Source: Octopus vulgaris
Lineage: Eukaryota
DNA: 64,000 bases
Direction: 5' to 3'
Assembly (NCBI GenBank): GCA_951406725.2
Contig: OX597824.1
Span: 71,114,001 to 71,178,000, forward strand
The notes below the pieces were generated by a model, which worked only from the letters and a program-made list of their open reading frames with translations, did not search any database and was not told where the DNA came from. Shown here in pieces: positions 37,812 through 39,348 of the stretch (its first letter is position 1; each line of letters opens with the position of its first letter). The position numbers and the translations under genes are program-made.

Positions 37812-39348
37812 CGAAAGGTGGCTGTGTGGTAAGTAGCTTGCTTATGAACCACATGGTTCCGGGTTCAGTCCCACTTAGTGGCACCTGGGGCAAGTGTCTT
37901 CTACTATAGCCTCGGGCAAACCAAAGCCTTGTGAGTGGATTTGGTAGACGGAAACTGAAAGAAGCCCGTCGTATATATGTATATATATATATGTGTGTGT
38001 ATATATATATATATATATATATATATATATATATATATATATATATATATGTATATATTATATATATATATATATATATATATATATATATATATATATA
38101 TAGAGAGAGAGAGAGAGAGAGAGAGAGAGAGAAAATAGTAAAAAGTGAAAAAACTACAGAAGGCTTGTTTTAAAAAGGTTAAAAAATATATATTTGAGTC
38201 AATATGTCTGAAGAATGTTATAAATTTTTTTCATACAATGACATAGTTTAGAAGAAATCATACAATGTCCCACCAACATCGCTTGACAAACGACGCTGGT
38301 GTGTTTACGTCCCCGTAACTTAGCGGTTCGGCAAAAGACACCGATAGAATAAGCACTCGGCTTACAAAGAATAAGTCCTGGGGTCTATTTGCTCGACTAA
38401 AAGCGGTACTCCAGCATGGCCACAGTCAAACTATGTCATTGTATGATTTCTTCTAAACTATGTCATTGTATGAAAAAAAATTATAACATTCTTCAGTGAC
38501 TCAAATATATATTTTTTAACCTTTTAAAACAAGCCTTCTGTAGTTTTTTCACTTTTTACTATTTTCAATATATTCAACCACGTGCTTTCACAAACCAACT
38601 TTCTCGCCCATATATATATATATATATATATATATATATATATAGAATAAATGTTTTTATATATAAAGAACGTGAAATACAGGAAGGGACGAACACGGAA
38701 CACAGACAAATCATTCGAAGCCTTCAATCTTCAGTCAGACACCGAATCATCATAGCAAATTTCGGCTGTTCAATTCTGATATTTGCTCCAACTCGGCCAG
38801 CCCCAAGAAAAAAACTAAGCTGTAAGCATTAGATTTCTTGGTAGAAGACAAGAATGTAAACGCAAGAGACGGATGTAAATACAAGAGACGAAAGCGAAAT
38901 TGAAAACAGTAATGGATAAACAAAATATAACGGTGGTTGTCTTACGACTTTAGACCAATTAAGACAAAAACAACAACAACATAGCAGCTGGCGTAGAAAT
39001 AATTACCTTTTCGGTAGAGGGGACACATGTTGGTCGAGATACGATCGCCAACATATATATATATATATATATATATATATATATATATATATATATATAT
39101 ATATATATATATATATATATATGCATGTATATGTGTGTATATGTTTGTTTTGTCTGTGTTTGTCCCACCAACATCGCTTGACAAACGACGCTGGTGTGTT
39201 TACGTCCCCGTAACTTAGCGGTTCGGCAAAAGACACCGATAGAATAAGCACTCGGCTTACAAAGAATAAGTCCTGGGGTCAATTTGCTCGACTAAAAGCG
39301 GTACTCCAGCATAGCCACAGTCAAATGACTGAAACAAGTAAAAGAGTA
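37812..39348 (+). mobile_element. SINE family A split by nested insertions in its internal (TA)n
   Basis: 5' half at 37812-37972, 3' half at about 39140-39348. Confidence 0.8.
38131..38588. mobile_element. Fold-back element (family of 32901) whose loop is a copy of nearby SINE DNA
   Basis: ~135 bp arms; loop 38266-38430 matches 39161-39325. Confidence 0.9.

Follow-up and report, generated by a model that had tools for sequence, protein, structure and literature searches.

A hairpin-shaped insertion in the Octopus vulgaris genome carries, as its loop, a copy of the DNA that flanks it on its downstream side. The hairpin sits in the internal microsatellite of a SINE, and the loop is a piece of the 3′ half of that same SINE. 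It was found in a window of 64 kb, by which we mean the whole stretch of DNA that was analysed, and the coordinates of its parts are collected in Table 1. On balance we favor the reading that this is a 5′-truncated Penelope-like insertion whose loop arose at integration, through serial template switching of one nascent strand, and we give that reading somewhat better than even chances. The component events are already known; their combination is new. No report of a Penelope-like hairpin with its own flank as loop was found in open-licence PMC and bioRxiv texts, and subscription papers may describe such loops.

Table 1. Parts of the hairpin, its host SINE and related fold-backs, with positions in the window
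Feature	Position	Strand	Remarks
Host SINE, 5′ half	37810-37971	+	A-box-like motif at 37819, B-box-like motif at 37862
Host SINE internal microsatellite, left part	37972-38130		(TA)n then (GA)n; left joint of insertion
Short (inverted) arm, 137 bp	38131-38267	-	includes 9 nt of slip, 38259-38267
Loop, 160 bp	38268-38427	+	direct copy of host SINE 3′ part
Variants private to loop and donor	38272, 38290, 38294, 38339, 38354, 38358, 38402		compared with 6 other window copies
Slip unit, 18 nt	38428-38445	+	repeats 38455-38472, offset 27 nt
Long arm	38446-38566	+	family sequence, pLTR-like 3′ part
AC-rich tail, 43 bp	38567-38609	+	on one arm only
(TA)n, right joint	38610-38644		putative priming site
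Separate 408-bp insertion between two (TA)n runs	38645-39052		likely another (TA)n-targeting element
Host SINE, 3′ half	39123-39346	+	donor 39161-39325 ends 21 nt before SINE 3′ end
Second family copy	32901-33112		loop-less palindrome, centre AAA/TTT at 33015/33016
Fold-backs with loops of 0-1 nt	32901-33112; 7467-7870		

The loop segment (38266-38430) and its donor are identical at 163 of 165 bases in the window alignment, which bears out a preliminary description of this DNA that had equated the two apart from two bases. These are 38386 T against 39281 A, where loop and donor both depart from the G of the SINE family, and 38418 G against 39313 A, where the derived base is the donor's. The four private variants named in that description are real: seven sites are common to loop and donor and occur in none of the six other SINE copies aligned in the window, and an eighth, at 38408, is also present in one of the six. 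These six copies differ from the loop in 16, 17, 17, 17, 19 and 35 of about 165 columns, so within the window the loop is 98.8% identical to the donor and 90-91% identical to the next-best copies. The best match is nearby DNA, and both joints carry short microhomologies, TG on the left (2 bp, 38266-38267) and AAA on the right (3 bp, 38428-38430), each of which fits arm and donor alike. The matching stretch of 165 bases is therefore a unique loop of 160 bp plus 5 bases of junction microhomology, a correction to the loop length given before. Over all possible arm-SINE joins, the chance frequency of such overlaps is 0.175 for 2 bp and 0.064 for 3 bp.

The donor lies in a normal context, preceded by the mid part of the SINE and followed by 21 more of its bases, while the loop is truncated on either side. 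Thus the loop is the copy and the donor is the source. The host SINE had been correctly identified as the source: the donor is the 3′ part of the SINE into whose (TA)n the element is set. It does not adjoin the insertion, its start being 552 bp away from the element's tail, or 144 bp if the 408-bp element arrived later. No record bridging either loop junction was among the 24 pieces listed from four public runs over 38125-38615, where the listed joints were swamped by SINE noise, so support for the assembly at this locus is indirect.

The window is rich in microsatellites and SINEs. The family of the host SINE, which we take to be the octopus tRNA-derived SINE OR1, accounts for 33 matches, 7% of the window and about 17% locally. 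Its A-box-like and B-box-like motifs, which the host copy retains, were identified by pattern, and ARAGORN found no tRNA. The 408-bp insertion has one 76% match in the window, at 30292-30361, and is likely another (TA)n-targeting element. Three inserts in or near (TA)n (33141-33320, 37562-37703 and 38645-39052) have hammerhead-like CTGAnGA..GAA motifs, found by eye or pattern, and Rfam scored neither of the two that were submitted to it. Several elements of this sort seem to have used the internal (TA)n of the SINE as a landing site.

The hairpin probably represents part of a Penelope-like retrotransposon, truncated at its 5′ end. Endonuclease-bearing elements of that class have an ORF for a telomerase-like reverse transcriptase and a GIY-YIG endonuclease; no protein-coding part of the hairpin family was seen in the window, so Penelope-like membership rests on anatomy. 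The arms match each other over 38131-38267 and 38431-38566 and differ by three events: one extra A, a 6-bp indel and one substitution. Compared with the three remaining arms in the two family copies, the long arm lacks 6 bp and differs by one substitution. The second copy, which carries a 22-bp tail on one arm, likewise lies within the (TA)n of a member of the host SINE's family, and the short arms of the two copies end at the same base. Both family copies in the window (2/2) therefore have head-to-head inverted, 5′-truncated arms, a one-sided tail and a (TA)n target, and matching loose ends occur in contigs of two public runs, X1 and X2. The preliminary description had recognized the hairpin, but its element stopped short of the 43-bp tail that runs up to 38609.

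Each of these features has a counterpart in Penelope-like elements. Inverted 5′-truncated arms, head-to-head palindromes and an optional 31-bp tail are described in excerpts of PMC3846280, and a tail of 30-40 bp and (TA)n targeting by the Naiad clade in excerpts of PMC8557442. A Penelope-like protein was found to cut both strands in vitro and to extend each of them, and the tail falls between two start sites of reverse transcription, within a stretch rich in A and C (PMC11167929). The endonuclease-bearing (EN+) elements are alike in their inverted arms, one-sided 30-40 bp tail and AT-rich or (TA)n targets; palindromic inverted junctions are read as self-priming there, and host DNA captured between pLTRs is also reported (Arkhipova et al. 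2013, excerpts of PMC3846280; Craig et al. 2021, excerpts of PMC8557442). Unlike here, that captured DNA is not described, in the same excerpts, as a copy of the element's own flank or as a hairpin loop. Unlike the known EN+ elements, the hairpin family has no ORF seen, and a target site duplication is unreadable inside (TA)n. Penelope-like elements have been recently active in O. vulgaris (excerpts of PMC13282606).

A MITE or Foldback DNA transposon was considered and rejected, as the ends are unequal and the tail is one-sided. Also against it, the fold point varies, lying at the equivalent of 33015 in one copy and about 45 nt further in in the other, and family contigs run past the centre into other sequence. 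Searched against metagenome contigs, the arm pattern matched once, by chance, over 25 bp of what seems to be bacterial coding DNA, and viral contigs gave no match.

The public runs give a view of the family outside the window. Over 38125-38615 three contig sets cover 29 of 29 bins, the raw-read run X20 contributed 2 reads and is uninformative, and the counts that follow come from the best 18 of 181 loose ends. At least seven family contigs in X1 meet (TA)n behind 38604 and at least three in X2 meet it behind 38573; these are the two ends seen in the window, about 30 nt apart. On the other side, at least three contigs in X2 (behind 38258) and at least four in X16 (behind 38249) continue the family into sequence absent from the window. 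The hairpin family appears to be high-copy. In the 30-letter consensus of X2 and X16 contigs, the continuation reads, on the sense strand, GAAA, a palindromic six-mer and UC. The Penelope-like pLTR ribozyme is a minimal type-I hammerhead with a palindromic helix III (excerpts of PMC4209133). The continuation gives a hammerhead-like GAAA..GUC motif, matching the 3′ half of that minimal ribozyme, the only part visible in the contig consensus, which does not include the 5′ core; by this match a cut is predicted between 38445 and 38446.

The hairpin copy departs from the family exactly at this predicted cut and then repeats 18 nt taken from 27 nt back. The slip joint is found in both arms, the short arm having 9 nt of the slip unit, and it is therefore likely that one of the arms served as template for the other. 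The predicted cut would likely be the 5′ end of the RNA template. The slip itself is likely rare or private to this copy, as the depth of bin 38431-38447 relative to the next bin is 0.121, 0.130 and 0.095 in the three contig sets, close to the 0.118 (2/17) expected if only the last two bases of the bin are family sequence; the argument is a rough one, since summed contig depth is not copy number. Among the matches listed, Rfam gave no hammerhead in the stretches tested, only microsatellite-driven microRNA noise. It gave no hammerhead match on 38125-39050, a stretch from which the hammerhead-like motif is absent anyway. Ribozyme cleavage is not needed for Penelope-like activity in vitro, and work on the anole detected no RNA ends at the cut position (PMC11167929).

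Another repeat in the window has a complete minimal-hammerhead-like motif, at 1240-1298. It lies between the members of a direct repeat pair, 860-964 and 1356-1460, which are 496 bp apart, and the arrangement resembles a Penelope-like pLTR in partial tandem.

Integration by serial template switching would have run as follows. First, the bottom strand would be primed at the right (TA)n, with reverse transcription passing through tail and arm to 38446. Second, the polymerase would slip back 27 nt and recopy 18 nt. Third, a TTT/AAA jump would bring it to the sense strand of the host SINE at 39325, where 165 nt would be synthesised toward the insertion site. Fourth, it would return by a CA/TG jump to the nascent cDNA, landing within the slip unit, and would then make the 137-bp inverted arm by snap-back. 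Finally, the product would be joined to the left (TA)n, at a TATAT-like spot of the element itself. We infer all of these steps from joints that are observed in the sequence. The shared slip and the junction microhomologies support such a chain, and the shared slip argues that the inverted arms copy nascent DNA rather than stemming from two reverse transcriptions.

The template of the third step was probably DNA rather than local SINE-sense RNA. If it was DNA, strand invasion would be needed, since the downstream top strand would be copied from a bottom-strand end. Integration as the origin of the loop has a weak spot: the re-entry lies only 9 nt from the start of the flank copy, as a pre-existing symmetric hairpin would give. 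The closeness would be explained if RNA covered the cDNA except for the slip unit, which is an extra assumption. To our knowledge, Penelope-like reverse transcriptases have no RNase H.

Capture of nearby DNA is rare in the window. There are about 10 fold-backs of whatever class, and one of the ten has a locally copied loop (eight spacers or approximate centres were searched within the window, and the other two have loops of 0-1 nt). The spacer of 5250-5475 has a 33-bp match, but this lies in a further member of the repeat family to which the spacer belongs; the centre of 29231-29411 matches (TAA)n, and the spacer of 37215-37703 has a single 31-bp, 80% inverted match within itself. The preliminary description had proposed comparing the loops of all family copies with nearby DNA; among the window copies, the hairpin's loop does match nearby DNA, but the other copy is loop-less. 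Its further suggestion of a route for local sequence capture fares similarly. The capture is real, but it is rare, is not limited to the hairpin's type of element, and is of a kind known for L1 and R2.

A second local capture was seen elsewhere. The segment 23975-24047 repeats 24613-24685 in direct orientation (73 bp, 96%, with shared private variants), and its donor is an old SINE copy 638 bp downstream. The host is an element at 23738-24148 with CAGGGTG-type inverted ends and no fold-back, which we presume to be mariner-like; its right end is also duplicated 611 bp upstream (23487-23533). Such a capture in an element without a fold-back indicates that host repair makes filler of this kind too.

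The preliminary description called the loop a clear mechanistic footprint of a polymerase jump from element to flank and back. A template jump at integration is indeed the best model, given the slip and the microhomologies, but "clear" claims too much, because a later palindrome break with local copying yields the same sequence. Divergence cannot order loop and arms (3 events in 137 arm-to-arm against 2 in 165 loop-to-donor; Fisher p 0.66). In this alternative, a near-perfect palindrome like 32901-33112 broke at its AT-rich centre, lost about 9 nt on one side and had 165 bp of the nearby SINE copied in, and the copied spacer would stabilise the palindrome. It is the main rival to integration, although we hold it to be unlikely. 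It accounts for the near-symmetric arm ends, 9 nt apart, and for microhomology at both loop joints, and the second capture described above is a local filler outside any fold-back. Palindromes are known to break at the centre and to be stabilised by spacers (excerpts of PMC8701086), and the asymmetric centre and stabilising spacer of palindrome centre-break revision (Cunningham et al. 2003, via excerpts of PMC8701086) are like those seen here. However, the outcomes in that system are mostly small deletions rather than 160-bp local copies: 93% of 118 palindrome rearrangements were deletions, and spacer inclusion was uncommon (excerpts of PMC8701086). Perfect or nearly perfect palindromes in the window, 32901-33112 and 7467-7870 (94% arms), persist without spacers, so centre breakage is not inevitable. 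The donor is also closer to the insertion site than to the centre, by 180 bp. Moreover, the captured stretch comes immediately after a slip located where the RNA is predicted to end, as a single chain of jumps would have it.

Two separate cDNAs are an improbable source of the arms. Here both target strands would be cut and extended on element RNA from the two preferred start sites, with and without the tail, and the ends would be bridged by copying the resected downstream flank. Cutting and extension of both strands occur in vitro, with the tail lying between two reverse transcription start sites (PMC11167929); the ends of family contigs fall at two sites separated by about 30 nt; and 32901-33112 is joined at a self-complementary AAATTT. 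Against this, the 27-nt slip is present in both arms and seemingly rare or private, which means that the source RNA must already have contained it. Two truncations that arose independently are unlikely to lie as close as 9 nt, and in 7467-7870 the short arm ends mid-ORF.

An assembly or library artefact, a fold-back chimera with a local template switch, is very unlikely. No junction-spanning contig or read was among the pieces listed, and inverted Penelope-like structures do trouble assemblies (excerpts of PMC8557442), but the arms differ by three events and loop and donor by two substitutions, one of them derived in the donor. Moreover, the inversion does not go beyond the element: it stops at the base where that of the second copy also stops, near the (TA)n contig junctions of another run, and the DNA flanking the hairpin is not folded back. 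Least probable of all is that the loop came from another near-identical genomic SINE copy, or that gene conversion evened out its differences from the donor: the SINE family is very abundant and only six other copies were aligned, but the eight shared departures from the majority, seven of them in none of those copies, occur in a match 552 bp away.

Related events are known from other retrotransposons. In R2, the cDNA end primes on the cDNA or on nearby rDNA, for one protein mostly after full-length synthesis (Zhang et al. 2024, excerpts of PMC11371274), and jumps to another RNA as extra template occur (excerpts of PMC11371274 and PMC11331408). Snap-back and extra-template 5′ junctions of R2 are like those proposed here, with the cDNA 3′ end priming on the cDNA and less often on nearby target DNA (excerpts of PMC11371274 and PMC11331408). 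The R2 case, as described in those excerpts, is engineered and in human cells, whereas the hairpin arose in nature and would have taken three jumps in succession (slip, flank and snap-back), and unlike in R2 its flank would have been copied from the primer side.

For L1, three insertions with DNA templated near the site are reported (Mendez-Dorantes et al., excerpts of PMC11702581), as are 3+1 cases (0.3% and 0.1%) in which synthesis at the 5′ side ran on for an extra 52-220 bp and one co-inserted, locally transcribed pre-mRNA (Nam et al. 2023, excerpts of PMC10191854). Rare co-insertion of nearby DNA is thus alike, but the L1 fold-back is upstream target DNA at the reciprocal end (excerpts of PMC11702581 and PMC10191854). 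The hairpin, in contrast, folds back an element arm, and its copied flank is downstream and in direct orientation.

A more specific version of template switching would have the reverse transcriptase run off a ribozyme-made RNA end, jump to a nascent transcript of the invaded SINE, and then snap back. We consider this doubtful. The capture starts 21 nt from the SINE 3′ end, is on the correct strand and stops at the SINE's microsatellite. Both local captures in the window derive from the same SINE family, a weak hint at local transcription (n = 2). If this version were true, hairpin loops would be a fossil record of ribozyme cleavage and of germ-line transcription at the target.

As a single locus, the hairpin is a dead and rare by-product. 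Its value is that it preserves, in legible form, the completion of a Penelope-like insertion, a step called unresolved in PMC11167929 and in excerpts of PMC8557442. In vivo evidence of Penelope-like ribozyme cleavage is reported to be lacking, and of the present leads the coincidence of junction and predicted cut most deserves to be followed genome-wide.

The window holds several further fold-backs and repeats. At 7467-7870 there is a near-perfect palindrome of 404 bp, with a 1-nt loop at 7668 and arms that are 94% identical. Its long arm runs into a GIY-YIG-like frame on the minus strand (7110-7544; Pfam E 0.0018, below the cut-off; atlas cluster with 11% GIY-YIG members, 0.95), which says nothing on the ORF of the hairpin family. 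Its short arm ends inside the frame, at a TATA common to element and microsatellite, which suggests snap-back followed by joining to the target. Both arms carry an (AAT)n asparagine run, like the N-rich inserts of rotifer Penelope elements.

Older, diverged fold-backs, with arms 68-95% identical, lie at 29231-29411, 52596-52899, 53475-53695, 60458-60928, 5250-5475 and 37215-37703. The fold-back at 1733-2620 has arms of 250-270 bp and a 138-bp partial tandem arm copy (2212-2349), and no source for its 230-bp spacer (1982-2211) was found in the window. A Tc1/Tc3-type transposase fragment lies on the minus strand at 4752-5111 (Pfam PF01498, E 4.5e-10). Finally, a second SINE family is present at 36086-36681 as three head-to-tail copies with a period of about 180.
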